Positions 8,855-49,012 of a stretch of 64,000 nt of DNA are shown piece by piece; within the stretch, counting starts at the first letter, position 1, and each line of letters starts with the position of its first letter. A program made the position numbers and the translations under genes. The notes beneath the pieces were generated by a model. The model searched no databases. It worked only from the letters and a program-made list of their open reading frames with translations, and was not told the DNA's origin. The stretch is from Nitrospirota bacterium (lineage in GTDB: Bacteria > Nitrospirota > UBA9217), in assembly GCA_963790205.1 (NCBI GenBank), contig CAWBNQ010000005.1, positions 32,001-96,000 on the forward strand. Direction: 5' to 3'.

Positions 8855-9175
8855 GCCACAGAGGCACAGAGACTCAGAGAATAACTCGTTGGATCCCATC
8901 TTTTAAAACCGGCACGTTGAAATTGATCAGTAATCCCAACTTCTTTTCTGTTAGTCTTAACTATGACAGTACTTGTGCCTTAAATACAGGGTCCATTCTA
9001 TCAACTGCTTTAAATTCTACGATGACTTCACTTCAATGAGAAAGTCGAGTCTATGCTCTCCTAAGTTCGTACCCTTGTATGTACCCAATTGCACACTTGA
9101 TGGTTTTGTCGGTAATAATGTTTAACTTATCTGTAGTTATTTTTTCCATTCTTAGTGTCTCCGTGTCTCGGTGGC
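8855..9175. mobile_element. Inverted-tandem-repeat element (8-nt period) carrying a decayed GxxExxY gene
   Basis: Left arm GCCACAGAG GCACAGAG ACTCAGAG; right arm CTTAGTGT CTCCGTGT CTCGGTGGC; AT-rich interior. Confidence 0.75.
8874..9149 (-). pseudogene. GxxExxY (PD-(D/E)XK) protein pseudogene
   Basis: My translation: MEKITTDKLNIITDKTIKCAIG / YKGTNLGEHRLDFLIE / EVIVEFKAVDRMDPVFKAQVLS*LRLTEKKLGLLINFNVPVLKDGIQRVIL*. Homologous to 14037-14417 and 48607-48984, with the GxxExxY segment deleted, frameshifts and an internal TAG. Confidence 0.85.
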
Positions 9176-9183
9176 GTATAGTA

Positions 9184-9678
9184 TTAATGTTTATGCGGCC
9201 TGCCTAAATGGTAGGCCCCGATAAGCCCTGCCAGGAGCAGCAGGGAGGCCAGCTCGACGCCGAGCACGTAAGGGCCGAAAAGCGCCATGCCGACCTGCTT
9301 GGGGCCGACGAGTTCCATTGCGGAAAGTCTCGCGCGATCGACCGTGAATAGATAGATCAGCTCCGCGGCCAGAATTACGATCAGGACCGACGGTCCGATC
9401 CAGATCCCCGGGCTCATTAATTGTGATTCCTGCTTTGACGCCTGGGCGCCGATGTTCAGCATCATGATGACGAACACAAAGAGCACCATGATGGCGCCGG
9501 CGTAGATGATCACTTCGAGCGCGGCCACGAAGGGCGCGCCCAGGGAAAAGAAAATGAGCGCCACGGCCAACAGCGACACGATCAGGTACAGGAGCGCGTG
9601 CACGGCGTTCTTCCTGGTGATGACTATGAGGGTGGACACTGCCGCAACGACGGCTGATATGTAGAAAAGAAGATTCAT
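9184..9678 (-). CDS. nuoJ: NADH-quinone oxidoreductase subunit J
   Basis: NAVHALLYLI, EVIIYAGAIMVLFVFVIMMLN, ELASLLLLAGLIGA. Confidence 0.95.
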   Translation of the reverse strand: MNLLFYISAVVAAVSTLIVITRKNAVHALLYLIVSLLAVALIFFSLGAPFVAALEVIIYAGAIMVLFVFVIMMLNIGAQASKQESQLMSPGIWIGPSVLIVILAAELIYLFTVDRARLSAMELVGPKQVGMALFGPYVLGVELASLLLLAGLIGAYHLGRPHKH

Positions 9679-9692
9679 TTGAAAAACCTTTT

Positions 9693-9769
9693 GCCACAGA
9701 GGCTCAGAGACACAGAGGAATAAGTAAAGTAATTTTGAAGTCTGCTCTGTGCCACTGTGCCTCCGTGGC
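9693..9769. mobile_element. Gene-less (MITE-like) copy of the 8-nt-period GCCAC...GTGGC element
   Basis: GCCACAGAG GCTCAGAG ACACAGAG, a 27-nt AT-rich spacer, then CTCTGTGC CACTGTGC CTCCGTGGC; arms nearly identical to 8855-9175. Confidence 0.75.
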
Positions 9770-9775
9770 GGATGT

Positions 9776-10291
9776 TTACGGCATTAAGCTCTTCACGTCG
9801 ACCGGTTTTTCTTCGTTCTCCGCTTCGCCCTTGCCCTTTCCCTTGATCGAAAGTCCGGCGACCCGGTAAAAATCATAATCAGGGTACTTGCCCGGTCCGC
9901 TGATGAGCAGGTCTTCCTTTTCATACACGAGGTTTGTCCTCTTGTATTCGCTCATCTCGAAATCGGTCGTAAGCTGGATGGCGTAGGTCGGGCACGCCTC
10001 TTCGCAGTACCCGCAGAAGATGCAGCGCGAGAAGTTGATGCGGAAGAACTCCGGATACCGCCGACCGTGCTCATCCTCGGCCGCCTGGAGCGAGATGCAG
10101 GCAACGGGGCATGCGACGGCGCAAAGGTAACAGGCCACGCAGCGCTCTTTCCCGTCGGGATCGCGTGAGAGGATGATCCGTCCGCGCCACCGGGGAGGAA
10201 TGTAGGGCCTCTCCTCCGGGTACTGGATCGTCGCCCGTTTCCGGAACATGGTCACGAAGACCGTCCAGATTGTTTTGAGTATGCTGAACAT
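9776..10291 (-). CDS. nuoI: NADH-quinone oxidoreductase subunit I
   Basis: Two 4Fe-4S motifs, [12 protein letters not shown] and [12 protein letters not shown]; start taken at ATG 10291 (MFSILK). Confidence 0.95.
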
Positions 10292-10304
10292 ATAAACTTT
10301 TTTT

Positions 10305-10396
10305 GACACTAAAGAAGCGGACAAAAGCCGGGATTTTCACGGATAATAAAATCTTAATCCGCTCTTATCATGGTCTTCCCAGTGTAAATCCGTGTC
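10305..10396. mobile_element. Gene-less copy of the ~10-nt-period GACAC...GTGTC element
   Basis: Reverse complement of right arm, CCTTAGACACGGATTTACACTGGGAAGACCATGATAAGAGCGGAT, matches the left arm at 13963 (CCTTTGACACGGATTTGCACGGATTAAAATCCTGATAGAAGCGGAT). Confidence 0.75.
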
Positions 10397-11352
10397 TAAG
10401 GTTTTCTTAATAAAATAACCGCTCCTGTAACGAGCAAATTCACCAGCGACAGCGGCAAACAGATCTTCCACCCGAACGACATAAGCTGATCATACCGGGG
10501 CCGGGGAAGCGAGGCCCGGAGCAGAATGAAAAGGCTGATGAATAGAAAGGTCTTGATCAAAAACCAGACCAGCGGCGGCAGCACCGGACCCAGCCAGCCG
10601 CCGAAGAACAGAGTTGCGGTGAGCGCCGAGATGAGCGTGATGCCGAGATATTCACCCACGAAGAACATGCCGAACTTCATGCCCGAATATTCAGAATGGT
10701 ATCCCGCAACCAGTTCGCTCTCGGCTTCGGGAAGGTCAAAGGGCAGGCGGTGTGTCTCGGCGATGCCCGCGATGAAGAACACGACAAAGCCTATGAACTG
10801 CGGTACGACGAACCAGAGACCGCGCTGCGCTTCGACGATCTCGCGCAAATTGAAGGATCCGGCAAGCATCACCACCCCCATGAGAGACAGGCCCATGAAG
10901 ACCTCGTAGGAGAGCATCTGGGCCGACGCGCGCAGGCCGCCGAGGAGCGAGTACTTGCTGTCCGAGGCCCAGCCTGCCAGCGCCACGCTGTACACGCCGA
11001 GGGACGACATGGCGAGAAAGAACAAAAGACCGATGTTCAGGTCCACGACCTCAATCCCCGGCGCATAGGGGATGACGGTGAAAGACATGAGTACGACCGC
11101 GACGATCACCGCGGGCGCAATGATGAAGACGGCTTTGTCCGCAAAAGGCGGTATCCAGTCTTCCTTGGTGAAGACCTTGAGCATGTCCGCTAAGACCTGG
11201 AGGAGGCCGAAGGGGCCTACGCGGTTCGGACCGTAGCGGTCCTGCCAGAGCGCCAGGAGCCTCCGCTCGTACCAGATCAGCCCGCCTCCTATGGTCAGCA
11301 CCGCGATGAGGATGCCGAAGAGGATGAGAAGATGCCGGATGGCGTCCGTCAT
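10396..11352 (-). CDS. nuoH: NADH-quinone oxidoreductase subunit H
   Basis: [50 protein letters not shown]. Confidence 0.95.
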
Positions 11353-13955
11353 GATGAAGTGTCCTTCCGTTGTTTCAACCGGCCGGCTTCGACAACAGCC
11401 GGGGAGTATGAACTTAATTCTTCCGAGCCGAAGATGGAATATCCCGGCAACGAAGCGCCTTCAGGCTTCACGGGGCGAGGCGAGGGAATGTCTGAAAAAT
11501 ACTTCGGCCTGTCATCCCGCTTCGGCTCGATCAACCGCTTGCCCGGATCGCCGCTTTTGAGCGGGCCGCCGACCTCCTGCTGGAATTTGTTCAAGGCCTG
11601 GACGGAATTCCAGCCCGGCGACCAGTAGCGCGGGATCAACGGCGCCGGCGGCTGGCCTCCATATCCCTCCATGGAGAAAGAGAGGGGAGTGTCGGGGTCC
11701 TCCGGCGGCTTCGGCTCATGAACGGTGATGTTTGCAAGCATGGCCGTGCGTCCGCTGTAGCGATGAGGCTGGCGCGGGACTTTCTGCCCTGATATCCGGA
11801 AATCCGCGTTTGGCGCGATGTCCTGGACAGGTTTGAGTACGGGCAAAGCCGCCGCCATGGCTGCTGTGATAGTATCGAGATCTTTCCATTTAACGGCCTC
11901 GGAACGTCCTGACTGAGTAAGTATATCACGGATCCATTTCCAGCTTTCCTGGATATCGTGATCCGGCGTGAAGACCTGATAAAAGCGCTGGGCGCGGCCT
12001 TCGTTGTTCACGAGCGTACCGTTCGATTCCGCGAACGTGCCGGCAGGAAGGGTGATCTCTCCCTTTGATGAAGTGGGATTAATGAGATGGTCAAGGACAA
12101 TGACGTATTTGGTCCTGCCCAGGAATTCATTGACGGTTTGTTCGTCGGCCCTGCGATAAAGATCGTTCTCCAGGATAATGACAGTCTCGGCCCTCGTTCC
12201 CTTGGGGGCAAGAGGGGATTTAAATAATTCTTCAAGGTTCTTCCCGTTCATGAGACCCAGGCCCATCGTGTTGCACTCAGGGATTGCATAGCAGAGTTCA
12301 GCGGGCTTTCCGCTTGCGCAAAGCGCCCAGGCAATATTGGCGGCGGACTGTATGACTGCTTCACTCAGGCACCCGGCGCCGGAGACGATGAGGGGCCGTT
12401 TGGCGTTCTTGAGCGCTGCGGCGATTTCCCTGGCAAGAGCGAATGCTTTGTCCGGAATATCTGTAACTGCGGGGGCATCGGGATCGAGTTCATGCGCCAC
12501 GGCGAAACCGAGCCTTGCAATATCATCGGGCGCGGAGCAATATGTCTTTGCCGCGATGTGGTCCAGCTTTGTGCCTGCTGCCGCGGCGATATAGAGGGGG
12601 CCTTTCTCGTCCTGGACCATATGCCGGACCGCATTGTCGTCCCATGCGGGAATGCGTTTTTTTTCAACCGACTCTACGGGCTGGTTCCGCACGGAACGGC
12701 GAAGCGCCAAAGCGAGCATCGGAGCGGTATTGGTCAGGTCCTCGCCGAGCACGAGCACGGCATCCGCCATTTCAACATCGTGCAGGGACGGCGTGCGGGC
12801 CGGACCGTTCTGAAGAATGTCGATAATAAGCGAGACCAGACAACGGTCCTTTGTTGACATGCCTGAATAAAAATTGTCCGGACCAACGAGCGTGCGAAGG
12901 GCGAAATTCGATTCCAGCGATGCACGGGGCGAGCCGATGCCGATGATCTTATCAGTTTTGGAAAGAACATCGGCAATATGTTTGAGAGCGGATTCTTTTG
13001 AGACAGGTGCTAGGCCCTCTTGCCCCCCTCTCCTCATGTCCTCTCCAGCGAGGGGAGAGGATGGTGCCCCTCCCTTCAGGGGAGGGGGTGGGGAGGGTGA
13101 TTTTTCCAGCGGCTTTCTGATCCTTTTACCGCTGTTCACGAACTCATACCCGAACCGGCCGCGGTCGCAGAGGAAATAGCCGTTCACTTCGTGGTTATAG
13201 CGGTTCAGTATTCTGCGAAGCGTGCCGTACCGCTCACCGGCAATGGTGTTACAGCCGATCCCGCAGTGCACGCAGACAGACGGCGCTGTCTGGAGGTCCC
13301 ACTTGCGCGTGTAGTGCTGCTTGAACGTTTTGTCTGTGAACACACCGGTAGGACAGACCTCGACCAGGTTGCCGCTGAATTCGCTTTCAAGCACGCCTTC
13401 TTCGTGACGGCCGAAATAGACGGAGTCATGACAAGCAAAGACGTCGAAGTCCCTGCCGCCTGCGTAGTCGCGGTAAAACCTGACGCAGCGGTAGCACTGG
13501 ATGCAGCGGTTCATCTCATGGTTGATGAAGGGGCCGAGATACTGATTGCGATGCGTGCGCTTCTTAAATCTCGTCCTTCTATAATTGTGGCCGGTCATGA
13601 CGGTCATGTCCTGGAGATGGCATTCGCCGCCTTCATCACAGACCGGGCAATCGTGCGGGTGGTTCAGCATGAGCCACTCGATCACGCCCGTCCGGAAGGC
13701 CTTTGCATCGGGATCATCGATGGACAGGCGCATGCCTTCTGCCACCGGCGTCATGCAGGACATGACGATCCTGCCGCGGGTGTCTTTCTCGTCCTTGAAC
13801 AGCTTTATTGCGCATTGGCGGCATGCGCCAACGGAATGCAGGGCCGGGTGCCAGCAAAAGTAGGGCAGATCGAATCCGAGTGAAAGACAGGCCTGGAGAA
13901 GGTTCTGGCCTTCTTTTACGTGATATGGCTTATTGTCGATGAAGATCGTGATCAT
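11349..13955 (-). CDS. nuoG: NADH-quinone oxidoreductase subunit G (long, E. coli-type)
   Basis: FCWHP...[27 protein letters not shown]...VCP and CVHCGIGC...LCDRG clusters; start ATG 13955 (MITIFID); 4-bp overlap with nuoH. Confidence 0.95.
13015..13099. repeat. Double-hairpin REP-like element inserted in frame within nuoG
   Basis: CCTCTCC-AGCGAGG-GGAGAGG and CCCCTCCC-TTCAG-GGGAGGGG hairpins; translates as [29 protein letters not shown]. Confidence 0.7.
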
Positions 13956-13960
13956 AAAAC

Positions 13961-14448
13961 AACCTTTGACACGGATTTGCACGGATTAAAATCCTGATAG
14001 AAGCGGATACCGATAAATTGATTATAAAAAATGAGTTTAAAAGACACGACGAACGATTTTCAACTTTTCTCCGAAATTGAGCAGCAGCCCGACCTTTGTG
14101 CCTGTTGCCTTGAGATAATGAACCAACTGTGCTTCGTGGGCTTTTGTAAGAGCGGAAACAGCTTTTAACTCAAGGATGATTTTATTGTCAACGAATATGT
14201 CGGCAAAGTATTCGCCGACAAGCTGGTCTTCGAATCGAACGTTAATAAGGGCCTGTTGGATTGACGGGAGCTTTCTTTGAGACAATTTAATCATCATTGC
14301 ATTTTCGTAAACTTTTTCCGAAAAGCTGAAACCCAGCTTGTTGTAGACATCATATGCACAGGCTATAATTTGGTCGGTTACTTCAGCATACAACAAATGG
14401 TTGTCCGCTTTTATCATCGTTCAATCCGCCTTTTCCGTGTCTAAGGTT
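13961..14448. mobile_element. Inverted-tandem-repeat element (~10-nt period) carrying a GxxExxY gene between nuoF and nuoG
   Basis: Terminal inverted repeats AACCTTTGACACGGA / TCCGTGTCTAAGGTT, each followed inward by repeated ...CGGAT units; AT-rich interior. Confidence 0.8.
14037..14417 (-). CDS. GxxExxY family PD-(D/E)XK nuclease-like protein
   Basis: 126 aa; LGFSFSEKVYENA (motif G replaced by S), ADIFV...ELKAV, HEAQLVHYLKAT, GLLLNFG. Confidence 0.9.
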   Translation of the reverse strand: MIKADNHLLYAEVTDQIIACAYDVYNKLGFSFSEKVYENAMMIKLSQRKLPSIQQALINVRFEDQLVGEYFADIFVDNKIILELKAVSALTKAHEAQLVHYLKATGTKVGLLLNFGEKLKIVRRVF

Positions 14449-15715
14449 TTCCCCACGGGCACTTCTTCTCCCGTATGTGCCTTTCGAAATCGTCTCTGAA
14501 ATACTTTATCGCGCTCTGGAGCGGCTCGACCGCGCCGGGTGCCAGCGCGCAGTAGGTATTGCCGGGACCGAGCAGTTTACACTGCTGTGCCAGGATGTCG
14601 ATGTCCGAAAGTTCTCCCTCACCGTTCTCGATCGCATGGAGCATTTTTTCTATCCATGAGAGGCCTTCACGGCAGGGCGTGCACCACCCGCAGGATTCCC
14701 GCGCGAAGAATTTTATGAGGTTATGCACGAACCCGACCGGACAGGTCTTGTCATCGAGCACGATCATCGTGCCGGTGCCGAGACGGCTTCCCGCCTTCAT
14801 CACGGAATCGAATTCCATCTTTACGTCGAGGTGCTCCTTCACCAGAAAATCGGTCGACGCGCCGCCGGGGATCAGGCCCCGGAAGGAATAGCCGTCCTGC
14901 ATGCCGCCCGCGTGCTCCTCGAGCAGTTCACCGACTGTCACGCCCATGGGCAGTTCCCAGATGCCGGGTTTTTTGACCCTGCCGGAGACGCCGTAGAGCT
15001 TGGTGCCGGCATCCGTGCTTTTGCTCAGGCCCTTGAACCAATCGGCGCCGTTGTAAATTATAGGAGGAATGTTTGCAACAGTCTCGGCGTTGTTCACGAT
15101 GGTGGGTCTTCCGAAAAGTCCGCAGACCTGCGGAAATGGCGGTTTTGCGCGGGGCGTTGCCCGCTTCCCTTCGAGAGCGTTCAAGAGCGCCGTTTCCTCG
15201 CCGCAAATATAGCGGCCCGCGCTGCCGTGGATACGAAGTTCGAGGCTGTATCCCGACCCGAAGATGTTTTTCCCGAGATAGTTGCTCCGGTATGCCTCGT
15301 CAATCGCCTTTTGCAGCGATTTTATGGCCGGCTTGTATGCCCACCGCACAAAGATGAAGGCCTGCTCAGCCTCGATGGCGTAGGAGCAAAGAATAACGCC
15401 TTCGATGATCTGGTGAGGAGCTCCCTCCAGCAAAAGGCGGTCTTTGAACGTGCCGGGTTCCATTTCGTCCGCGTTCACGATGAAGTACTTCGGCCGGGTC
15501 TCCGGCCCCATGGGCACGAAACTCCATTTCATGCCCGTGGGAAATCCCGCGCCACCGCGGCCGCGCAGGTTCGATGCCTTGACCATGTCCTGCACCTGCT
15601 GGGGCGTCATCGCAAGCGCCTTACGCAGGGCATGATAGCCGCCTGTTCTCTCGTAATCCTTGAGAGAAAGGGGCGCCTGGCCAGGGCGAATGTTTTTTGT
15701 GAGAGGTCGTTCCAT
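14441..15715 (-). CDS. nuoF: NADH-quinone oxidoreductase subunit F
   Basis: GRGGAGFPTGMKW, NADEMEPGTFKD, YICGEETALL, ESCGWCTPCREG...C. Confidence 0.96.
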   Translation of the reverse strand: MERPLTKNIRPGQAPLSLKDYERTGGYHALRKALAMTPQQVQDMVKASNLRGRGGAGFPTGMKWSFVPMGPETRPKYFIVNADEMEPGTFKDRLLLEGAPHQIIEGVILCSYAIEAEQAFIFVRWAYKPAIKSLQKAIDEAYRSNYLGKNIFGSGYSLELRIHGSAGRYICGEETALLNALEGKRATPRAKPPFPQVCGLFGRPTIVNNAETVANIPPIIYNGADWFKGLSKSTDAGTKLYGVSGRVKKPGIWELPMGVTVGELLEEHAGGMQDGYSFRGLIPGGASTDFLVKEHLDVKMEFDSVMKAGSRLGTGTMIVLDDKTCPVGFVHNLIKFFARESCGWCTPCREGLSWIEKMLHAIENGEGELSDIDILAQQCKLLGPGNTYCALAPGAVEPLQSAIKYFRDDFERHIREKKCPWGKP

Positions 15716-15721
15716 AGAAAT

Positions 15722-15749
15722 CAGTTCAGAGTTCGGAGTTCAGAGTTCG
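15722..15749. repeat. 7-nt tandem repeat arm (AGTTCRG)x4
   Basis: AGTTCAG AGTTCGG AGTTCAG AGTTCG; complementary arm at 16287-16312 on the far side of nuoE. Confidence 0.7.
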
Positions 15750-15811
15750 TGGTAAAGGCGCATGGCAAAGTAAGTCACCCTGAATTTACTTGCGCCAATG
15801 CTGTCCAAACA

Positions 15812-16276
15812 TTACTTATATTTTAGAAGTATCTCTTCCATCATCTCCGGCGTCACGGGTCCGTACAGGTCCTCATCCACCATCATGGCCGGGGCCCGGT
15901 CGCAGGCGCCGAGGCAGGAGATCGGAAGCAGGGTGAACCGCTTGTCCTCCGTTGTGCCGCCGAAGGTGATGCGCAATCTTGTCTTGAGAATATCCAGCAG
16001 AGGATTGTATCCCATGACCCAGCAGCTTATGCTGTCGCAGACGAGGATCACGTGCCGCCCCACCGCCCTTCTGAATATGAAGCTGTAGAACGTTGCCACG
16101 GCATCAAGCTCATCTGTCGTCATATCGAGCATTGCCGCAACGTCCTTGACCGCTTCGTCGGACACCCAGCCTCGGTGACGCTGTACGATATTCAGCGCGT
16201 CGACGGACGCCGAGACCTTCGTCACGGAGTGAGTCAGCTCGGCGTTGATTTCCTGTATCTCTTCATTGGACAACAT
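15812..16276 (-). CDS. nuoE: NADH-quinone oxidoreductase subunit E
   Basis: VATFYS, CDSISC...CLGACDRAP 2Fe-2S motif. Confidence 0.95.
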   Translation of the reverse strand: MLSNEEIQEINAELTHSVTKVSASVDALNIVQRHRGWVSDEAVKDVAAMLDMTTDELDAVATFYSFIFRRAVGRHVILVCDSISCWVMGYNPLLDILKTRLRITFGGTTEDKRFTLLPISCLGACDRAPAMMVDEDLYGPVTPEMMEEILLKYK

Positions 16277-16286
16277 AAGTGCCCCT

Positions 16287-16312
16287 TACTCTACGCTCCG
16301 AACTCCGGACTG
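16287..16312. repeat. 7-nt tandem repeat arm, inverted relative to 15722-15749
   Basis: TACTCTA CGCTCCG AACTCCG GACTG in the nuoCD-nuoE gap. Confidence 0.55.
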
Positions 16313-16314
16313 TT

Positions 16315-18066
16315 TTACCTGTCCAGATCAGCCAAGATAAAATCAATGCTCCCCAGGATCGCCAACAGGTCCGCGATCATCAACCCGCGGCTCAGCTTCG
16401 GCACCATCTGCAGGTGCGGGAACGAGGGAGTGCGGATGCGCGTACGGTACGATACCGTGCTGCCGTCGCTTACCAGATAATACCCGTTGTTTCCCTTGGT
16501 CGCTTCAATACCCATGAACGCCTCTCCGGCAGGGATCACCGGTCCCCAGCTTACACCCAGAAAGTGATTGATGAGCGTCTCGATGTCGTGCATGGTGCGT
16601 TCCTTGCGGGGCGGCGTCGTAAGGGGATGATCTGACTTATACGGACCGGAGGGCATGTTGTTCACGCACTGCTCGATGATGCGAAGGCTCTGGCGCATCT
16701 CTTCAACACGCACGACGCCCCGGTCGTAGCAGTCGCCGTGAACGGCAGTGGGAATATCGAAATCAAAATTCTCATAACCCGAGTAGGGGCGTTTCTTGCG
16801 AAAGTCCCATTCAAACCCGCAGGCCCTGAGGCCCGGTCCGGTCACTCCCCAGTCGATGGCCTCGTCGAGCGTATAGGCGCCGACGCCCTTGGTCCGGCCC
16901 TTGAAAATGCTGTTCCGCATCACGATCGAGTCGTATTCCTTAAGACGCGGCGGGAGATAGGTAAGAAAATTTCTTACGAGCCCGTCCCATCCCCTGGGAA
17001 GGTCCTGCGCCACGCCGCCGATCCGGAACCATTCGGGGTGCATGCGGCCGCCGCAGACCGCCTCGATGATGTCGAAGATGCGTTCGCGGTCCGTGAACAT
17101 GTAGAAAACCGGGGAGAGGGAACCGACATCCTGCGCAAAGGTCCCGTACCAGACGAGGTGGCTCGCGATGCGGAAGAGCTCGGCCAGCATGACGCGGATG
17201 GTCTTTGCGCGGTCCGGGACCTCGATGCCGGCGAGCTTCTCCACGGCGAGGCAGTAGGCCAGGTTATTCATCACGCCGCCGAGATAGTCGACGCGGTCGG
17301 TATAGGGTATGTAGGTATGCCAGGACTGGCGCTCGGCCATTTTTTCAGCGCCGCGGTGATGGTAGCCGATGTCGAGCACGGCGTCCACGATCTCCTCGCC
17401 GTCGAGCTGAAGGATGAAGCGGATGAGGCCGTGGGTGCCGGGGTGCTGCGGTCCGAGGTTCAGGAACATGAAGTCCGTGTCCCCGGAGCGGCGTTTCATG
17501 CCCCAGTCCTCGGGCCTGAACTGGAGCGCCATTTGTTCGGACAGCTCCTTTTCACCGCCCGGCAGGTGGAAGGGCCCCATCTCGGTGGCGCGCGCGGGAT
17601 GTTCCTTGCGTAAAGGATGTCCTTGCCACGTCGGGGGCATCAATATTCTCTTTAAATGGGGATGGCCGTCGAACCCGATGCCGAACATGTCCCAGACCTC
17701 GCGCTCGTACCAGTTCGCGGATTCCCAGAGGCCGGTGACGGTGGGGAGGGAGGAGGAGTCCTCCGTGAGAGGCACTTTGATCCTGACGTCGTCATTCCGG
17801 TCATAGGACAGGAGATGGTATACCACGGTGAAATCACTTTGAGGCTGGTCAATACGGTGTGACCGCGTACGCTCGTCTATGGCCGTGAGATCGTAAAGCG
17901 TGCGATACGGGCGTTCCACTCCGCTCTTGAGATGGCGGAGAACGTCGCGCGCCTTGTCCCTGCCCACCCAGAGCGTGGGAATGTCGTCGCGGGTTGGCTG
18001 CACGGCGAGTATGCTTTCGCCGAAGATGCTTTTCAGCTCATCGATGATCGAAGGGGATGGGGTCAT
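16315..18066 (-). CDS. nuoC: NADH-quinone oxidoreductase fused subunit C/D
   Basis: [14 protein letters not shown]...GHPLRK (NuoC) fused to [28 protein letters not shown] (NuoD). Confidence 0.95.
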
Positions 18067-18083: not shown

Positions 18084-18220
18084 GCCACAGAGGACACAGA
18101 GGTCACAGAGAACACTGAAACTCGAAATAGTAAACAATATCGAAGGACCAAATTACGAAATCCGAAGTATTTTTGATTTTGACATTGTTGAGAGTTTAAA
18201 AATTCGTGTTTAAGATTTCC
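18084..18220. repeat. Composite: 9-nt-period GCCAC arm joined to an AT-rich inverted repeat element
   Basis: GCCACAGAG GACACAGAG GTCACAGAG AACACTGAA, then CTCGAAA...ACGAAATCCGAA and a loosely complementary arm ...AAATTCGTGTTTAAGATTT. Confidence 0.6.
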
Positions 18221-40330: not shown

Positions 40331-40363
40331 GGCAGGGGACGGTCGCCCTGCCTTTTTCTTTTT
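40329..40363 (+). terminator. Rho-independent terminator
   Basis: AAGGCAGGG...CCCTGCCTT stem followed by a T-rich run. Confidence 0.7.
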
Positions 40364-40382
40364 GAGGCAAAAGACTTTCTTT

Positions 40383-40478
40383 GCCACGGATGGACACTGA
40401 TGGACGCGGATGTCAACGTCTCAAATCTACAACGTGTCGCTTGATTTTTATCAGTGTAAATCCGTATGTATCCGTGGC
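40383..40478. mobile_element. Gene-less copy of the 10-nt-period GCCACGGAT...ATCCGTGGC element
   Basis: GCCACGGAT GGACACTGAT GGACGCGGAT ... ATCAGTGTAA ATCCGTATGT ATCCGTGGC. Confidence 0.75.
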
Positions 40479-40806: not shown

Positions 40807-42198
40807 TTAAAAATCCAGCGGGCTCTTCGCCTCTTTGATAGTCCTGCCCGGAATGCAGTGAGTATAGATCATCGTGGTCCGGATGTCCGCATGTCCCAAA
40901 AGCGTCTGGATCGTGCGGAGGTCATAGCCGGCCTGCAGGAGATGCGTGGCATAGGAATGACGGAAGATGTGCGATGTGACGCGCTTGGTGAGCCTCGCCT
41001 TCCTGACCGCTATGAACAGCGCCTCCTGGACGTCTTTCTCGTGTAGATGATATCGCCGGATTTCTTTCGTGTGCGCAAGGGTTGTTAATGTTTCCTGAGG
41101 AAAGAACCACTGCCAGATGAAATCTTTCGCGGCACTCTGATATTTCTTTTCGAGCGAGTCGTCAAGAAACGCGCCGGCATATCCCATGGCAAGGTCTTTA
41201 TCATGAATCGTTTCAACCGTTTTTATCTGCGCGAGCAATTCCGGCATGACCGCTTGGGGGAGGGGAACAGTCCTGCTCTTGCCGCCTTTTCCGCGAATTG
41301 TCAGGATCCCCGCGTCGAAGTTGAAATCCAGCACCCGCAGTTTGACGCCTTCGAAGAGCCGAAGCCCGCAGCCATAAAGCAATTTGACCACCAGTGAATA
41401 ATGATGCGGCAGGTGCATCAAGATCGCATCGATTTCCTTGCGGGAGAGAACGATGGGGATATAGCGCGACCGTTTTGCCCGCGGTATGTCCGTGTGATTG
41501 CCGAAGTCTTGTTTGAGGATATGCCGGTACAGGAACAGCAGGGAGTTGAACGCCAGATTCTGCGTTGACGAGGACACCTTGCATTGAACCGCAAGATAGG
41601 TGAGGTAATCCTTCACGTCCGTTGCCGACAATTCCTTGGGCGCTTTGTCTTTTAGATAGCTCTGGAATTTCCGGCTCCAGTTTGCATAGGCGATCAGTGT
41701 CTTCCGAGAATAGTGCCTCGCCTTGATCTCCCCCTCAAGTTTTTCGACGACCTTATCCCATTCCGGAGACTTCGATTTCTCGCGAAACCGCATCTCATCG
41801 TAGCGCCGACCTGATCGCGGAGGCGTTTTCTTTTGCGTTGCCAACGATTCGGAACTTGCGCTCTTTTCCGCCTTCAAGGGGGAGACAGTGAGGGGGGTGG
41901 GTTTCGACGGTGTCGCCGGCACTTCTCCCTTTGCCGGCTTCCCTGATTGCACCTCAAAAAAGAGCGACAACGCATGCGCGGCCTGATCAAGCTGATCTTG
42001 CGACTGGTTCTTGGACCGCAGCTTTTCGATAAACAGCCGCACCTGATCGGACTTTGAATCCGGCGGCGAATATTTGACGCGGAAATCGAGGTAATATCTG
42101 AGCCATTTTCGGTAGTGAGGACGGAGAGCGGGGGGAATTGGCTTTTGTTCCATGACGGCGTCGAAGGGTTTTAAAATTTCGTTTGGGATGGGGAGCAT
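40807..42198 (-). CDS. intI: Integron integrase with an extended N-terminus
   Basis: Tyrosine recombinase residues (GLRLFE, GKGGKSR, HIFRHSYATH, LLGHAD, MIYTH) plus the integron-specific insertion (WQWFFP...RYHLH); HYSRKT SAM domain; divergent from the cassette array. Confidence 0.93.
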   Translation of the reverse strand: MLPIPNEILKPFDAVMEQKPIPPALRPHYRKWLRYYLDFRVKYSPPDSKSDQVRLFIEKLRSKNQSQDQLDQAAHALSLFFEVQSGKPAKGEVPATPSKPTPLTVSPLKAEKSASSESLATQKKTPPRSGRRYDEMRFREKSKSPEWDKVVEKLEGEIKARHYSRKTLIAYANWSRKFQSYLKDKAPKELSATDVKDYLTYLAVQCKVSSSTQNLAFNSLLFLYRHILKQDFGNHTDIPRAKRSRYIPIVLSRKEIDAILMHLPHHYSLVVKLLYGCGLRLFEGVKLRVLDFNFDAGILTIRGKGGKSRTVPLPQAVMPELLAQIKTVETIHDKDLAMGYAGAFLDDSLEKKYQSAAKDFIWQWFFPQETLTTLAHTKEIRRYHLHEKDVQEALFIAVRKARLTKRVTSHIFRHSYATHLLQAGYDLRTIQTLLGHADIRTTMIYTHCIPGRTIKEAKSPLDF

Positions 42199-44285: not shown

Positions 44286-44306
44286 TATGGCACGGGAGAA
44301 ATAAAG

Positions 44307-44862: not shown

Positions 44863-44878
44863 CTGAAAAGAGGTAGTC

Positions 44879-45769: not shown

Positions 45770-45781
45770 TCATGAGTATAT

Positions 45782-45841
45782 TTTTAACATCGCGGTCCAC
45801 AGCGACGCGCCAAAAGGCGGCGCGTGACCGCGGCGTTAAAA
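45782..45841 (+). other. attC site 3 (60 bp)
   Basis: TTTTAAC..CGCGGTCCACAGCGACGCGCC...GGCGCGTGACCGCG..GTTAAAA; core nearly identical to attC2. Confidence 0.88.
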
Positions 45842-45859
45842 TCTAACCAATCGGAGGCT

Positions 45860-46075: not shown

Positions 46076-46130
46076 AAAGCAATAATTTATCAAGTAACTT
46101 CCTTTCCGCGTTGCCCTCGGATAATTCAAT

Positions 46131-46167
46131 TTGACAAAGCATTATTTAATATTTACAATGTAAATAT
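46131..46167 (+). promoter_or_regulatory. Toxin-antitoxin promoter with operator palindrome
   Basis: TTGACA-N17-TACAAT, 6 nt before ATG; perfect IR ATATTTACA-A-TGTAAATAT (46149-46167). Confidence 0.75.
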
Positions 46168-46450
46168 GAAATTAACCTTCGATTGGGACAAGGAAAAGAG
46201 CGCATCAAACCGAAAGAAGCATGGCATTTCTTTCGATGAGGCGCAGACGGTATTTCTTGATGAGAATGCATTGATGATACACGATCCGGACCATTCCGCA
46301 GACGAGGACCGTTTTATCATCCTGGGATTAAGCGTCAAGTTCAGAGTTTTGGTTGTTTGTCACTGCTATCGAAAAAGCAATGAGGTTATAAGAATCATAT
46401 CCGCTCGAAAAGCAACGCGTACAGAACAGAAACGATATTGGGGAAGGTGA
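46166..46450 (+). CDS. brnT: BrnT family toxin
   Basis: FDWDKEK..SNRKKHGISFDEA..VF, EDRFIILG, IRIISARKAT. Confidence 0.9.
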   Translation: MKLTFDWDKEKSASNRKKHGISFDEAQTVFLDENALMIHDPDHSADEDRFIILGLSVKFRVLVVCHCYRKSNEVIRIISARKATRTEQKRYWGR

Positions 46451-46455
46451 TCAAA

Positions 46456-46671
46456 ATGAGAAAAGAATACGATTTTTCAAAAGCACAAAAGAATCCTTAT
46501 GCACGCCGACTGAAGAGACAAGTCACCCTCCGGATGGATGAAGGCACAATAAGCTATTTCAAAACTCTGGCACAAGAGATCGGCGTTCCCTATCAAACGT
46601 TGATAAATCTTTACCTCCGAGATTGTGCAGCCTCGCACAAGAAGCTGGCGCTTCACTGGAAAACCGCATAA
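46456..46671 (+). CDS. brnA: BrnA family antitoxin
   Basis: MRKEYDFS..KNPY, VTLRMD, YQTLINLYLR (ribbon-helix-helix). Confidence 0.88.
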   Translation: MRKEYDFSKAQKNPYARRLKRQVTLRMDEGTISYFKTLAQEIGVPYQTLINLYLRDCAASHKKLALHWKTA

Positions 46672-46674
46672 AGA

Positions 46675-46726
46675 TTTTAACGAATCATTCGAGCCGCCCC
46701 GAGAGCGGCTCGATTCGTCGTTATAC
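46675..46726 (+). other. attC site 4 (52 bp, short)
   Basis: TTTTAAC GAATC..CGAGCCGC-N7-GCGGCTCG ATTC..GTTATAC; AGATTTTAAC is the exact 10-nt complement of GTTAAAATCT at the cassette start (45835). Confidence 0.8.
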
Positions 46727-46738
46727 TCAGGAGGTTCT

Positions 46739-47674
46739 ATGCATACGCGGCGACGCTTTTTCCCAGGGCTTATTGCTGCTGCCCTGTTGCTTTCCCTCTG
46801 CGCTCCCGGCTATTCCGGAGGATATTACAAATGGACGGATGAGGACGGGAACCTTCATATCTCGGACTCGCTGGGAGACGTTCCCGAGAAGTATCGGAGT
46901 CAGATCGAGCACAAAACGTATGAAAACGAATCACCTTCATCAGCCGAGCAATCTGGTGGCGCCCCTTCTTCGCGAGATCAGCGGGCCGCTGAAAAAGGGG
47001 AGGAAAAGCAGCCGCTGAGATACGTGGTCCCGTACGTGCCTTATGAGAGGTCGGCAAAGCGCGTTATTATTAAGGTCGTATTCAATGGTTCCGTGACCGC
47101 CCCGATGGCGATCGACACAGGTGCGCCGGGCACGGTCATATCCTCCTCCCTTGCAAAAAAACTCGGGCTGTTCGATGAAGGGCAGGGAAGACTGCTCATT
47201 ACGACGGGCGGGATCGGCGGTTCGGCCCCGGCGGTGCGGTCGATCATCGATACGATCCAGGCCGGAGGGGCGAAAATCGAGTTCGTCCCGGTCACGATCA
47301 TCGCCCGGATCTCCGATGCATTTGACGGGCTCCTGGGCTTGGATTTTGTTTCGAATTACTCCGTGACGATCGATTCAAAACGGAAGATGGTAGTATTTGA
47401 AGAGCTTCCCCGGGACCCGGACCATCCCGGCGGTCATGATCGGGAGTGGTGGGCCTCCCTGTTCAGGGAGTTTGCCGCCTCGCGCGCCACCTGGAAGGCC
47501 TACAGCGAGGCCCTCGATCAGAAGATCCGGGATTCCATGCGCTCCATCGAGAACGAGGACACGGCCAGGAAGGCCTTCGCCGAGGATCAATACCGGGAGT
47601 CCGAAAAACTTTTTGACAAGCTTGACCGATATGCACGGGAGAACTCCGTCCCGATGTCCTGGAAGCAGTATTGA
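46739..47674 (+). CDS. Secreted DUF4124-like + retropepsin-type aspartyl protease
   Basis: Signal peptide, YKWTDEDGNLHISD, IDTGA, GLLGLDF; AGGAGG RBS. Confidence 0.82.
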   Translation: MHTRRRFFPGLIAAALLLSLCAPGYSGGYYKWTDEDGNLHISDSLGDVPEKYRSQIEHKTYENESPSSAEQSGGAPSSRDQRAAEKGEEKQPLRYVVPYVPYERSAKRVIIKVVFNGSVTAPMAIDTGAPGTVISSSLAKKLGLFDEGQGRLLITTGGIGGSAPAVRSIIDTIQAGGAKIEFVPVTIIARISDAFDGLLGLDFVSNYSVTIDSKRKMVVFEELPRDPDHPGGHDREWWASLFREFAASRATWKAYSEALDQKIRDSMRSIENEDTARKAFAEDQYRESEKLFDKLDRYARENSVPMSWKQY

Positions 47675-47759
47675 ACATGCGTTTTGATCATGTCAAAAGA
47701 ACGGTTTGATGTTTACGCGGGTAGCCTGCCGTCAAGCAGCCGTGCCCAACCGCTTCTGT

Positions 47760-48554
47760 TCACGCCTGTTTCTTGTTCACGTGCTCATGATTGAAGATAT
47801 GCTCCATGCAGTACCCCAGTCCGCCGCAGTCGGAGCAGTAGCGGAACTCCATTTGAGGATGCGAGATGTCCGTTTTGCCGCAGGTCGCGCAGGTGTGAAA
47901 CGCTTCCCGTTTGCCCGAGAACTGCCGGGCCTGCTCCGCCATGCGCCGCTTCCCGGTCTTCATCCTCCAGGAGATGTCCTTGCCGAAGAAGAGGAGGAAG
48001 TTGCTGATCGAGGCGAGCACGAGCAGGCGCGTGCTGCCGGGGCCGAAGATAAGCTCATAAGCGTAGCCGATCCAGGTCAGGAGCGCCAGCCACTTGATCT
48101 TCACCGGGAGTATGAAGAAGATATAGAGCTGGAAATCGGGGTAGAGGAACGCGAAGGCCAGGAACACCGAGCCTCCGATAAAGAGGTTCGTCGCGGCGAT
48201 AGTAGGGGAAGAGAAACGACACGGCCACGGTGACGACATACCCGACCAGGAGGTACAGACGTTGTACCGGAACGCGCCCCAATGGCCTTCCAGGGCGCTC
48301 CCCATGAGATAGAACATGTACCACGCGAAAAGAATGAAGATCGGGCTCGTGACCGGCGGTATGAACAGGAACGTGATGAGCCGCCACCATTCGCCCGCCA
48401 GCACGAGAGCGGGAATGAGCACCACGCGGTCGAGCATGAACCTGCCCGACATCTCGAACACGAAAAAGAGCACCTGCCCCAGGATGAGATAGAGCGTGAC
48501 ATTCGGTATCGCGTAGCGGCGTAACTTTCTTTCCAGCCGGTCAAGCAGGCCCAT
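47760..48554 (-). CDS. Rhomboid/Der1-like membrane protein with a C-terminal Cys/His zinc finger; compensating frameshifts at ~48200-48260
   Basis: GEWWRLITFLF, FILPVKIKWL, CATC...CSDC..YC..H..H; the hydrophobic segment LYLLVGYVVTVAVSFLFP lies in another frame. Confidence 0.7.
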   Translation of the reverse strand: MGLLDRLERKLRRYAIPNVTLYLILGQVLFFVFEMSGRFMLDRVVLIPALVLAGEWWRLITFLFIPPVTSPIFILFAWYMFYLMGSALEGHWGAFRYNVCTSWSGMSSPWPCRFSSPTIAATNLFIGGSVFLAFAFLYPDFQLYIFFILPVKIKWLALLTWIGYAYELIFGPGSTRLLVLASISNFLLFFGKDISWRMKTGKRRMAEQARQFSGKREAFHTCATCGKTDISHPQMEFRYCSDCGGLGYCMEHIFNHEHVNKKQA

Positions 48555-48587
48555 GATTCATACTCCCTCTGATTGATATATTTCTTG

Positions 48588-49012
48588 GCCACAAAAGGCA
48601 CATAATTCACAAAATGAGCTTCTTAATTTCTATCTTTGGAGAACCAAAATTAATCAGCAGAGCATGGCGCTGATTCGACGCCCTCAGATATCCCAGAACC
48701 TGGGCCGTATGCTCTGCAGCAAGCGCTTTGCAAGCCTTGAGTTCAATGATCAGACAGCCCTCGAAAAATAAGTCGGCGTAGTAATCTCCAAGAACCGTTC
48801 CGTCTTCGTCCATCACCTTGAGAGGATGTTGTTGCTCAACACGAAATCCTGACTTTTGCAGCCTATGAGCCAGTCCATTCTCATATATTTTTTCCAGGTG
48901 CCCATGACGAAGATAGGCATGCAGGTCAAAGGCAACTTGCCTGATCTGATCGCAAAACTCTAAGATGTCTTTTTCATTTTTCAATTTTTGTGCTCTCTGT
49001 GCCTTATGTGGC
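48588..49012. mobile_element. Inverted-tandem-repeat element (9-nt period) carrying a GxxExxY gene
   Basis: GCCACAAAA GGCACATAA TTCACAAAA ... TTTTGTGCT CTCTGTGCC TTATGTGGC. Confidence 0.8.
48607..48984 (-). CDS. GxxExxY family PD-(D/E)XK nuclease-like protein
   Basis: GHLEKIY motif, ADLFF..IELKA, HTAQVLGYL, LLINFG; TTG start 1 nt inside the right arm, TGA within the left arm. Confidence 0.9.
   Translation of the reverse strand: MKNEKDILEFCDQIRQVAFDLHAYLRHGHLEKIYENGLAHRLQKSGFRVEQQHPLKVMDEDGTVLGDYYADLFFEGCLIIELKACKALAAEHTAQVLGYLRASNQRHALLINFGSPKIEIKKLIL

Follow-up and report, generated by a model that had tools for sequence, protein, structure and literature searches.

GxxExxY nuclease cassettes between inverted tandem-word arms, with gene-less hairpins, as a candidate REPIN/RAYT-like pairing in a Nitrospirota bacterium and its relatives

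GxxExxY genes in a Nitrospirota bacterium lie between two inverted arms of tandem 7-nt words, and the genome also contains hairpins built of such arms without a gene. At the genome level, how many word arrays occur, and of which class, depends on whether the gene is present and on its class. Our best reading is that cassettes and gene-less hairpins form a REPIN/RAYT-like pairing, in which a PD-(D/E)XK nuclease would be associated with its own palindromes and the cassettes may be likened in build to the ORF-bearing intervening sequences (IVS) of 23S rRNA. Given ~100 gene-less hairpins genome-wide and their near-absence in related genomes without the gene, a role of the nuclease in spreading or maintaining these repeats is likely; if true, this would be the first role for the very large GxxExxY protein family. 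In the literature searched, we found no description linking GxxExxY genes to repeat-word hairpin arms.

The window, that is, the whole stretch of DNA analyzed, comprises 64,000 nt (assembly GCA_963790205.1, contig CAWBNQ010000005.1, positions 32,001–96,000 of the forward strand), and the region under study extends from window position 8855 to 49012 (Table 1). An earlier note on this DNA had proposed a mobile element family of bracketed nuclease genes and gene-less derivatives. On re-reading, all of its coordinates for genes, arms and gene-less copies held, including those of the three gene-less hairpins and the lone arm; the computable tests that it proposed came out in favor, and its interpretation is partly supported overall.

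Table 1. Cassettes, gene-less hairpins and solo arm in the region under study (window positions)
Feature	Position	Strand	Remarks
3΄ arm, decayed cassette, nuoJ/nuoK gap	8855–8880	–	three 8-nt units; pairs with 9150–9175
Decayed GxxExxY gene	8874–9149	–	three internal stops in translation
5΄ arm, decayed cassette	9150–9175	–	three cores; array 9151–9173
Gene-less hairpin, 8-nt type, nuoI/nuoJ gap	9693–9769	–	8 bases missing at 9747 in X1 and X2
Gene-less hairpin, GACAC type, nuoH/nuoI gap	10305–10396	–	retains ATGATAAGAGCGGAT stretch
3΄ arm region, intact cassette, nuoF/nuoG gap	13961–14014	–	54-nt arm; pairs with 5΄ arm in RNA fold
Intact GxxExxY / PD-(D/E)XK nuclease gene, 126 aa	14037–14417	–	profile matches
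5΄ arm, intact nuoF/nuoG cassette	14397–14448	–	contains ATG 14415–14417
Solo arm upstream of nuoCD	18084–18119		three exact 9-nt-spaced cores plus fourth degenerate unit
Gene-less hairpin, 10-nt type	40383–40478		between convergent SLT/LysM and tyrosine-recombinase genes
3΄ arm, second intact cassette	48588–48612	–	stop codon 48607–48609 inside arm
Intact GxxExxY gene, 125 aa, TTG start 48982–48984	48607–48984	–	profile matches
5΄ arm, second intact cassette	48985–49012	–	starts one base after start codon

All seven GxxExxY homologues of the genome (7/7) have such arms, and the copies are only 26–41% identical to one another, giving no sign of recent gene transposition. As the earlier note had described, start codons lie in or next to an arm: the ATG of the nuoF/nuoG cassette is inside the stem, and the TTG of the second intact cassette abuts its arm. 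The 5΄ arm of the former also overlaps the last nuoF codons and the nuoF stop codon, and the latter gene is flanked on the same strand by a DUF6882 gene on one side and a 264-aa ORF on the other. An intact cassette orthologous to the decayed one occupies the same nuoJ/nuoK junction in another genome (L062). Between strains, whole units are gained and lost in the arms: related strain contigs revealed deletions of one whole 8-nt unit in both arm sets, at 9150 in the decayed cassette (X1, X2 and X3) and at 9747 in the nuoI/nuoJ hairpin (X1 and X2), as well as a 14-nt insertion polymorphism beside the solo arm, for which no partner arm was found. The nuoH/nuoI hairpin retains a ATGATAAGAGCGGAT stretch resembling the beginning of the ORF in the nuoF/nuoG cassette, and 22 gene-less TCTCGCAAAG hairpins were counted in this genome, some of which share loop sequence at different loci. 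The tyrosine-recombinase gene lies ~330 nt from the 10-nt-type hairpin, which we record as proximity only. An Rfam search of the whole window at gathering score returned two tRNAs and nothing else.

The arm unit consists of a 7-nt core, C-R-C-N-R-A-K (C[AG]CN[AG]A[GT]), plus 1–3 spacer bases; an arm usually contains three core copies, and exactly 3+3 cores were present in 46 of 103 elements. The 8-, 9- and 10-nt periods described earlier are present, but they are spacer variants of this one core rather than unrelated repeats. Arm ends read (A/G/T)CC(A/G)C, TCTCGC, TCACGC or GACAC. In the whole genome, there were 120 arrays of at least three cores spaced 8–11 nt, compared with 1 in a shuffled genome, and forward-then-reverse array pairs at most 700 nt apart numbered 91, compared with 6 of the opposite polarity. 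Register matching of spacer bases was seen in the family set (35 versus 13), but neither for spacers in the cross-phylum set (19 versus 16) nor for core variants (105 versus 106); exact pairing of the arms is thus weakly constrained. A sense-strand test for wobble showed no bias (G.T + T.G 117, A.C + C.A 138 among 4131 paired cells). Some hairpins are nested in or abut others (nuoJ/K and nuoI/J of locus L034, and hairpin flanks).

The two intact proteins (14040–14417 and 48610–48984, minus strand) matched the TIGR04256 GxxExxY profile with 128.6 and 116.5 bits (cut-off 35) and Pfam PF13366 PDDEXK_3 with 131.9 and 103.2 bits (cut-off 22). Residues E34, D73, E83, K85 and Q97, which make up the PD-(D/E)XK catalytic set (E, D, ExK, Q), were invariant across 54 sequences. 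A structure model of the 126-aa protein (pLDDT 93.5) has a predicted PD-(D/E)XK fold; its best fold matches were the Cas4 protein SSO0001 and a restriction-endonuclease-like protein, at a middling Z of 8.1. Pfam and NCBIfam yielded only PF13366 and TIGR04256 in the gene, and no HUH/Y1 (IS200/IS605-like) transposase.

We computed arm scores for 109 GxxExxY genes in 61 genomes of this bacterial family and compared them with those of random genome places. The arms exceeded the 99th percentile of random places for 103 of the 109 genes, and the same held for 66 of 77 loci spread over many phyla, so that the bracketing suspected from one window is general. When own arms were compared with swapped partners, 81 of 109 exceeded the swapped 95th percentile. 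On the protein tree, the arm word class changed 8 times over 89 rows (shuffled mean 41.1, minimum 34), and finer arm labels changed 13 times, compared with 56.4 when shuffled; the arm word class follows the protein clade, which was the outcome of the co-variation check that the note had suggested. Moreover, cassettes 80–90% alike occur in unrelated flanks, and the likeness stops at the arms. For example, the C6 cassette of genome G000 and that of locus L093 share 84% identity over 448 nt, which ends 0–6 nt from the arm ends, beyond which both flanks are unrelated for ~450 nt. Such alignments show the cassette, including its whole arms, to be a discrete unit. Cassettes occur one by one between housekeeping genes, the elements of the window lying between nuo genes and other protein-coding genes, and are fitted between the stop codon of one host gene and the start of the following gene on the same strand. 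The bracketed design is not peculiar to the nuclease: unrelated 23S_rRNA_IVP (PF05635) genes elsewhere in the same genome also lie between analogous 7-nt arms, which leaves room for a shared process driven by the host.

Among the 61 genomes, triple-word arrays numbered 8163, compared with 286 for a backwards control pattern. The number of arrays correlated with that of gene matches (Spearman rho 0.76), a correlation whose p-values are overstated because related genomes are not independent. The 13 genomes that lacked a gene match had a median of 5 arrays and the 48 with a match one of 147.5, and the same contrast held within three genera (g19, g12 and g3); with 1–13 genes per genome, there were about 30 arrays per gene. 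Array class behaved similarly: the median number of RGAT arrays was 15 with a gene of that class (n = 20) and 2 without (n = 4), and that of RGAG arrays was 35 (n = 25) and 8 (n = 3), the groups lacking a class gene being tiny (n 3–4). A genome with RAAG genes only (G055) had 2, 17 and 2 RGAG, RAAG and RGAT arrays, respectively; in another (G005), CGCAGAT arrays were dominant and a gene with CGCAGAT arms was present. Gene class predicted blind from the arrays was correct in both cases (G075, RGAT; G001, RAAG). However, two genomes had many arrays but no gene match, namely G015 (67 arrays, 91% complete) and G058 (206 arrays, 65% complete); MAGs often lose repeats during assembly, which bears on array counts. 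Class mismatches were also observed: 33 RGAG arrays were counted in G068, in which we found no RGAG gene, and G063 had 59 RAAG arrays and a single, broken gene of the RGAT type. In G000, CGCAGAT and ACCRCAGAG hairpins occurred without an intact gene carrying exactly those arms.

Among 15 related operons, nuo junctions were found in empty, hairpin and gene-filled states, as the earlier note had anticipated, but no empty site could be aligned base by base. The nuoF/G junction measured ~420–460 nt in 5 of 13 operons, and the genes overlapped in 2; the nuoJ/K junction measured 10–27 nt in 5 of 14, and the nuoI/J junction 13–23 nt in 5 of 14, the genes abutting in a sixth. In agreement with the note, comparison of related genomes revealed no direct repeat at the element ends, and Pfam and NCBIfam no transposase domain inside the elements; for want of a closely related empty site, this evidence against a duplication is weak.

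We propose, with about an even chance of being right, that the GxxExxY protein recognizes its own arm word and thereby copies or maintains gene-less hairpin derivatives, in a REPIN/RAYT-like manner, the enzyme being of another type. The protein would bind the 7-nt words of its own arms and would nick or cut the folded-back arms, most plausibly as single-stranded or cruciform DNA, since there is no RNA-type wobble bias. To our knowledge, PD-(D/E)XK enzymes cut DNA and do not join it. No joining activity is known for this fold, and copying would therefore be completed by host replication or repair. The stem would form in the operon transcript too, hiding the ribosome site and start codon of the cassette, and would thereby tie cassette expression to translation of the host gene upstream.

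Such a stem also lies at the center of a reading that we consider rather unlikely, in which the cassettes are RNA-level intervening sequences with a ~25–50-bp transcript stem cut by RNase III, and the gene is selfish cargo under stem-controlled translation that spread via rare recombination or transfer without involvement of the nuclease. In the RNA fold of the nuoF/nuoG cassette, the arms indeed pair and the AUG is buried (z –3.3). The cassettes lie on the host gene strand, tightly between ORFs: in 73 of 103 cassettes, the end of a same-strand ORF precedes the arm (median gap 4 nt), and in 83 of 103, the start of one follows it (median gap 13 nt). Their size and build match the Coxiella IVS as described in the available part of PMC4990558, and the IVP genes found here are bracketed in the same way. 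However, the lack of sense-strand wobble bias and the presence of gene-less hairpins between convergent genes (20/86) argue against this reading, which leaves unexplained the conservation of words across phyla, the word class that follows the protein clade and the dependence of gene-less arrays on the gene.

It is unlikely that the partnership is domesticated and neither partner now mobile, the hairpins serving the host, for example as mRNA-end stabilizers, terminators or insulators within operons, and being trimmed or maintained by the nuclease. A single clade unites the nuoF/G cassettes of six genomes from five genera, as would be expected after long vertical residence; the catalytic residues are under constraint, and hairpins are depleted between divergent genes (8/86, compared with a background of 19%). 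RAYTs themselves are called domesticated in the part of PMC5581495 available to us. Nevertheless, many related genomes have almost no arrays, nuo junction occupancy is highly variable and the gene frequently decays.

The nesting and abutting of hairpins, as with elements that target REPs, and the large number of arrays per gene would be expected if GxxExxY genes homed into the loops of pre-existing tandem-word palindromes, the arms being target halves and the gene-less copies unoccupied targets. We regard this as very unlikely: arrays are nearly gone where the gene is absent, even within genera, whereas independent targets should persist, and the arms and the protein have co-diverged deeply. 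In addition, the gene-less nuoH/I copy retains the inner arm, ATG included, of the complete nuoF/G cassette, and cassette likeness spans the whole arms. Finally, a stand-alone defence or addiction (toxin-like) nuclease with merely regulatory arms is the most improbable reading: a small PD-(D/E)XK nuclease with PADLOC matches to Cas4b and one candidate defence model would suit it, but these matches are far below significance (E 0.001–0.007) and absent for the second protein, a PHROG search gave no match, relatives number 1 in a viral collection and 595 in genomes, the arms enclose no partner gene and the gene-less arrays are unexplained.

The preferred pairing of nuclease and palindromes resembles the REPIN/RAYT system, as far as the available parts of the sources describe it, in that the gene lies between inverted copies of a palindromic repeat of its own, gene-less copies are numerous in intergenic DNA, repeat abundance is tied to gene presence and repeat type to gene clade, and repeats are depleted between divergent genes. 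However, the protein here is a ~125-aa PD-(D/E)XK nuclease, whereas RAYT (TnpA-REP) is an HUH/Y1 transposase, and the arms are tandem 7-nt words instead of a single REP with a tetranucleotide head; the GTAG or CGTC head described in the available part of PMC3733652 is not found at the arm ends. The present genes also number 1–13 per genome, in cassettes embedded between operon genes on the same strand.

From the part of PMC4990558 available to us, the Coxiella IVS is 428–444 nt long, with a 28-bp terminal stem, a small ORF and RNase III cutting. The 23S rRNA IVS of Coxiella and Leptospira (S23p/IVP) and the cassettes share a 0.3–0.5-kb unit, one ~120-aa ORF, terminal inverted repeats with a stem of ~28 bp, a position inside a host transcript and a sporadic distribution. 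In contrast, GxxExxY cassettes sit between protein genes and none in a 23S rRNA helix, their ORF encodes a PF13366 nuclease instead of a four-helix-bundle IVP (PF05635), and they have tandem-word arms and hundreds of dispersed gene-less copies.

Like IS/MITE pairs, the elements occur as full and internally deleted forms with the same ends, but no DDE or other known transposase and no target-site duplication were found. Heptamer GGGNATC repeats of Xanthomonas and Nostoc, read as quadruplex-forming by Rehm et al. (2015, PMC4692102), are likewise 6–9-nt tandem words of few units, transcribed and over-represented between same-direction genes; the available part of that paper links them to no inverted partners or bracketed gene, whereas the C-R-C-N-R-A-K words form paired inverted arms linked to a nuclease. 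Integron cassettes are similar as promoter-less, co-directional small genes with an imperfect palindrome (attC) that acts as folded single-stranded DNA. However, each ORF has one attC, which lies downstream of it and is recombined by a separate integrase, whereas two mutually complementary arms bracket the ORF in GxxExxY cassettes, which contain no integrase and are scattered singly.

The profile search found GxxExxY nuclease genes (TIGR04256/PF13366) in 48 of 61 genomes of the same family. We took flanks at the 30 loci returned and at 80 more of the best-scoring places; with the nuo loci and the genome of the window added, tblastn matches numbered 126. Of these, we kept the 109 that were free of internal stops, scored 80 bits or more and had complete flanks, and dropped 17 rows on those criteria. 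For 103 of the 109 genes, the inverted match between the upstream and downstream arms exceeded the 99th percentile found for 1000 random places in the genome with the same geometry. In 81 of 109, the gene's own arms matched better than the 95th percentile of 1000 pairings in which upstream and downstream partners were swapped, and the two arms of one element are thus more alike than arms of other elements. The median arm length was 36 nt, 84.4% of aligned positions pair, and 46 of the 103 elements have exactly three core words on each side.

The scan of other phyla covered one genome per species and used a profile of the LGPGLLES clade only, the broader profile being too diverse. At least 595 GxxExxY relatives were present among the first 602 pattern matches, from many bacterial phyla and, in two records (Methanothrix, Methanophagaceae), from archaea. 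The best 80 of these belong to Acidobacteriota, Planctomycetota, Proteobacteria, Chloroflexota, Bacteroidota, Verrucomicrobiota, Cyanobacteria, Actinomycetota, a chlamydia-like MAG and the two archaea. Flanks were complete for 77, of which 66 pass the same arm threshold, 32, as in the family set; the refuting condition of the earlier note, a lack of such arms at GxxExxY genes elsewhere, is thus contradicted. Most cross-phylum arms hold three ACCACAGAG-type words each. The proteins are 51–71% identical to the lead sequence of the profile, and a non-coding word kept across phyla at this protein identity argues for sequence-specific use and not merely for a stem. The single GxxExxY locus of a viral collection has arms too, and phages are not an obvious main carrier. 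The observation of armed GxxExxY genes is real and general.

The earlier note had described repeat periods of 8, ~10 and 9 nt that differ per element; the periods do differ, but all consist of one 7-nt core, C[AG]CN[AG]A[GT], with 1–3 spacer bases; the core is in forward orientation (5' to 3') in the upstream arm and reverse-complemented in the downstream arm. In the 4.34-Mb genome that contains the window, 120 arrays of at least three cores spaced 8–11 nt were counted, compared with one after shuffling. A core array was followed by a complement array within 700 nt in 91 pairs, compared with six in the opposite order, and 20% of arrays lay inside crude ORFs, compared with 86% for the whole genome. 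Array abundance and polarity in this genome are far beyond chance. The commonest word of its gene-less hairpins (two inverted arms without a gene) is TCTCGCAAAG, also the word of two resident genes; it occurs in 22 gene-less copies of 72–158 nt, some of which share a loop sequence at different loci. CGCAGAT and ACCRCAGAG hairpins are present as well, with no intact gene in this genome bearing exactly those arms. The flanks of its CRC-type hairpins, for example C1:541112-541225, resemble heptamer arrays. A GxxExxY gene of another genome of the family (G005 C15:1702995-1703330, locus L245) has non-CRC arms of GGAGAAATGGAGAA-like units with an arm score of 62, indicating that further word classes exist.

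The flagged elements of the window and the related cassettes elsewhere in its genome are listed in the following table. On rereading, every coordinate in the earlier note was exact to the base.

Positions of armed genes, gene-less hairpins and the solo (unpaired) arm in the window, and of 23S_rRNA_IVP genes on other contigs of the same genome
Feature	Position	Strand	Setting or score
Decayed GxxExxY gene, three internal stops	8874-9149	-	nuoJ/K gap
Gene-less hairpin	9693-9769	-	nuoI/J gap
Gene-less hairpin	10305-10396	-	nuoH/I gap
Intact GxxExxY gene	14040-14417	-	nuoF/G gap
Solo arm	18084-18119		upstream of nuoCD
Gene-less hairpin	40383-40478		SLT/LysM and tyrosine-recombinase genes converge on either side
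Second intact GxxExxY gene	48610-48984	-	DUF6882 gene and 264-aa ORF either side, same strand
Intact 23S_rRNA_IVP gene between inverted 7-nt-unit arms	C11:84451-84834		71-133 bits (range of the three intact genes)
Intact 23S_rRNA_IVP gene between inverted 7-nt-unit arms	C14:70624-70986		71-133 bits (same range)
Intact 23S_rRNA_IVP gene between inverted 7-nt-unit arms	C1:495847-496203		71-133 bits (same range)
Broken 23S_rRNA_IVP (Avd-like four-helix-bundle) copy	C3:880097-880487		

Pfam matches define a complex I operon on the minus strand of 5000-18066 (nuoCD, E, F, G, H, I, J, K, L and M), four intergenic gaps of which are occupied by flagged elements, and the proteins of both intact genes are clear members of TIGR04256/PF13366. 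None of the flagged elements matches an Rfam family at the gathering score, and at E values up to 1 only chance, hairpin-shaped matches to miRNA models appeared; two tRNA genes at 54442-54514 and 54598-54670 (-) are the window's only Rfam matches at gathering score. The tyrosine recombinase beside the hairpin outside the operon (463 aa, 40807-42198, minus strand, ~330 nt away) has a Phage_integrase domain and two SAM-like N-terminal stretches, and a terminator-like GC-rich hairpin followed by a T run (40330-40365) lies directly 3' of the SLT/LysM gene, just before this 10-nt-type hairpin. Global alignment of gene-less with full elements was scattered, and only the common, ATG-containing inner arm was usable. 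In contigs of closely related strains, exactly one 8-nt unit is absent from the arm at 9150 and from the arm at 9747. These contigs also have 14 nt more at 18117-18124, two 7-nt units inserted into a heptamer-like run that adjoins the solo 9-nt arm. Like other tandem repeats, the arrays thus gain or lose whole units. Among the strain-contig alignment rows listed, no contig joins precisely across a whole element, and low cover over 13840-14306 in X1 of the strain contigs carries no clear meaning.

We compared the cassettes (a gene with its two arms) all against all, and found some that are 79–90% identical in DNA, with the likeness stopping at the arms and ~450 nt on each side unrelated. For a cassette on contig C6 of the window's genome and its counterpart L093, the likeness stops at +3/+6 nt and +2/0 nt relative to the outer ends of the arms, and it likewise ends at the arms in the groups L128/L144, L047/L049 and L082/L083/L136/L122. 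No direct repeat was seen at cassette ends, in sites without a closely alignable empty counterpart. Across 15 related nuo operons, the nuoF/G gap measures 414–463 nt in five, 276 nt in one and 36–177 nt in five, and the two genes overlap in two; the nuoJ/K gap is 10–27 nt, just a ribosome site, in five operons and 43–349 nt in the others. One relative has a complete cassette of 472 nt in nuoI/J, and some gaps in relatives contain hairpins of other word classes or a hairpin nested within a hairpin. In the nuoJ/K and nuoI/J gaps of one such operon (L034, genome G007), 8-nt-type arms lie outside and TGCAAAA-type heptamer arms inside. The earlier note had looked to these junctions for empty, gene-less and full alleles with precise ends: their lengths do vary widely, with a cassette or hairpins in some, but the intergenic DNA could not be aligned for precise ends, even in the nearest operons, whose NuoH is 89–91% identical to that of the window. 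A second nuo operon in the same assembly (C9:1-12000, L031; NuoH 91% identical) is free of elements at nuoH/I and nuoI/J. Its nuoJ/K gap is only 43 nt long and contains a solo run of the GCGGAG type. This operon may be a paralogue or may come from a second strain in the bin, for which contamination is 3.97%.

The cassettes fit closely between host genes. An ORF of at least 90 codons on the same strand precedes 73 of 103 cassettes, with a median distance of 4 nt from its stop to the arm (quartiles –6 to 13), and a same-strand ORF follows 83 of 103, its start a median of 13 nt past the 3' arm. A cruder placement call, by which most flanks were uncallable, gave 35 versus 8 upstream and 37 versus 6 downstream. 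At the nuoF/G cassette, the last codons of nuoF and its TAG stop (14441-14448) lie inside the outer palindrome, as also in genome G010 (L040), and the inner stem contains the cassette ATG. In several relatives, the GxxExxY ORF reads through an arm. The 3' arm extends the frame of the C6 cassette (C6:63121-63564) by a C-terminal tail, and the 5' arm encodes N-terminal residues in L047 and L049, where the ATG precedes this arm.

An RNA fold of the nuoF/G cassette pairs the arms (–144.3 kcal/mol, z –3.3). Stem mismatches of the G.T plus T.G type, which wobble in the sense RNA, numbered 117, compared with 138 of the A.C plus C.A type, which do so on the other strand, and this lack of strand bias does not favor RNA over DNA. 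Among informative elements, spacer bases were in register rather than out of register in 35 versus 13 cases in the family set and in 19 versus 16 in the cross-phylum 8-nt set, and core variants show no register (105 versus 106). The wobble and register results suggest that the arms are more like inverted arrays of a recognized word than a precisely maintained helix.

We labeled arms by the last four letters of the core (RGAG, 36; RAAG, 31; RGAT, 22; others, 14) and placed the labels on a tree of the 103 GxxExxY proteins, made from 120 columns by a quick search that left many forks without resolution. The three main labels required 8 changes among 89 rows, compared with a mean of 41.1 (minimum 34) in 300 shuffles, and six finer labels required 13 changes, compared with 56.4. 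Arm word class thus co-varies with protein clade; the earlier note had suggested looking for such a link with the repeat period. Clustering alone is expected, because linked features share ancestry; what carries information is that word class is preserved along branches exceeding one change per site, a distance that would scramble neutral non-coding DNA.

Three cores with 1–3-nt spacers occurred 8163 times in the 61 genomes, compared with 286 for the pattern read backwards, and the number of arrays rose with the number of GxxExxY matches (Spearman rho 0.76 among 61 genomes). Because kin are not independent and MAGs lose repeats, P-values for this relation should be read with caution. The 13 genomes with no match had 1, 2, 2, 2, 2, 4, 5, 5, 12, 13, 15, 67 and 206 arrays, the last two being 91% and 65% complete, respectively, and the 48 genomes with a match had a median of 147.5, only one having 20 or fewer. 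This tendency was also seen within genera: in g19, five genomes without the gene had 2–5 arrays and seven with it 23–284; in g12, gene counts of 0, 0, 1, 2, 2 and 5 corresponded to 2, 2, 8, 28, 73 and 151 arrays; and in g3, arrays numbered 1, 12 and 13 in three genomes lacking the gene and 21 in one whose sole match is weak. At ~30 arrays per gene, the arrays are not merely the arms of the genes themselves.

A class-specific comparison used the 103 of ~236 matches whose gene class was known, the group without a class gene being genomes with at least 60% of their genes fetched. Median array numbers with and without a gene of the same class were 35 (n = 25) and 8 (n = 3) for RGAG (one-sided P = 0.029), 47 (n = 21) and 15 (n = 3) for RAAG (P = 0.063), and 15 (n = 20) and 2 (n = 4) for RGAT (P = 0.005). 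For test genomes, we predicted the gene class from the arrays (RGAG/RAAG/RGAT) before the genes were examined. An RGAT gene was predicted for G075 (0/0/12), and its sole gene has CGCGGAT arms; an RAAG gene was predicted for G001 (4/39/5), and its only good gene has ACCACGAAG arms; and G005 (28/78/238, mostly CGCAGAT) contains a CGCAGAT-armed gene, plus RAAG and GGACACGGAT ones. However, two genomes count against class matching: G068 (33/31/4; 89% complete) gave only an RAAG gene, and G063 (16/59/30; 74% complete) has one broken RGAT-type gene.

In the protein, E34, Y37, D73, E83, K85, Q97 and N114 are invariant in 54 sequences and include the PD-(D/E)XK set. Its Q-x3-Y motif we take to be of the RecB/Cas4 kind, the analysis having given only weak Cas4b matches (E 0.003–0.007). 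The structure model is confident (pLDDT 93.5, pTM 0.86), and its top fold matches, at Z 8.1 each, are Cas4 SSO0001 (rmsd 3.1 over 97 residues) and a restriction-endonuclease-like protein, followed by the BpuSI nuclease domain, AF1548, SwaI, BglII, NucS, Hjc and XisH. Hjc, NucS, Cas4, restriction enzymes and XisH tie within ~2 Z; the best matches, at middling scores, fix the fold as the generic PD-(D/E)XK one but no subfamily. A sequence search of solved structures gave no relative, the best match being an unrelated hypothetical protein (E 0.053), and PADLOC and PHROGs gave nothing significant. The entry for PF13366/TIGR04256 in a 2012 survey of PD-(D/E)XK proteins gives the function as "Unknown" (PMC3424549).

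The 23S_rRNA_IVP genes with 7-nt arms form a sister type of cassette beside the GxxExxY one. Because they sit in like brackets, a bracket by itself does not show the protein inside it to be the mobilizing enzyme, and they tie the design to the classic ORF-bearing 23S rRNA intervening sequences (IVSs). Every computational test run supports the idea in the earlier note that full and empty elements make up a family tied to its own nuclease, with a mechanism that we infer. A wider reading, which we offer tentatively and with more doubt than conviction, is that GxxExxY proteins may be word-reading nucleases running a second, independently evolved, pan-prokaryotic REPIN-type system, in which each clade would read its own 7-nt word, three per inverted arm, and propagate its own cassette together with hundreds of gene-less intergenic hairpins in bacteria and archaea, the 7-nt-armed IVP cassettes and rRNA IVSs being sister forms. 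PF13366/TIGR04256 is a very large family without an assigned function, and a DNA word tied to it gives a direct and cheap assay, of the protein against its own arms. The link would explain a class of so far unexplained tandem-word palindromes that fill intergenic gaps, even inside essential operons such as nuo, and clades reading different 7-nt words would be of interest as small, specificity-diverse nucleases. We found no paper linking GxxExxY/PF13366 to repeats in the part of the PubMed Central literature that was searched; the abstract of a 2015 paper describes abundant bacterial heptamer repeats as quadruplex formers and names no bracketed gene (PMC4692102).

Among known systems, REPIN/RAYT is the closest working likeness, but its defining enzyme, the HUH/Y1 transposase, is absent here. 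ORF-bearing IVSs, described as 428–444 nt long and of unknown origin, with a terminal stem of 28 bp that RNase III cuts (PMC4990558), are built like the GxxExxY cassette, whereas the latter lies outside rRNA and has a different ORF. The IS/MITE pair, to which the earlier note had likened the elements, was rejected for want of a known transposase, and the GxxExxY elements are not integron cassettes either. With the link between GxxExxY proteins and their words, genome-repeat partnerships of the REP/RAYT type would have a second enzyme class.
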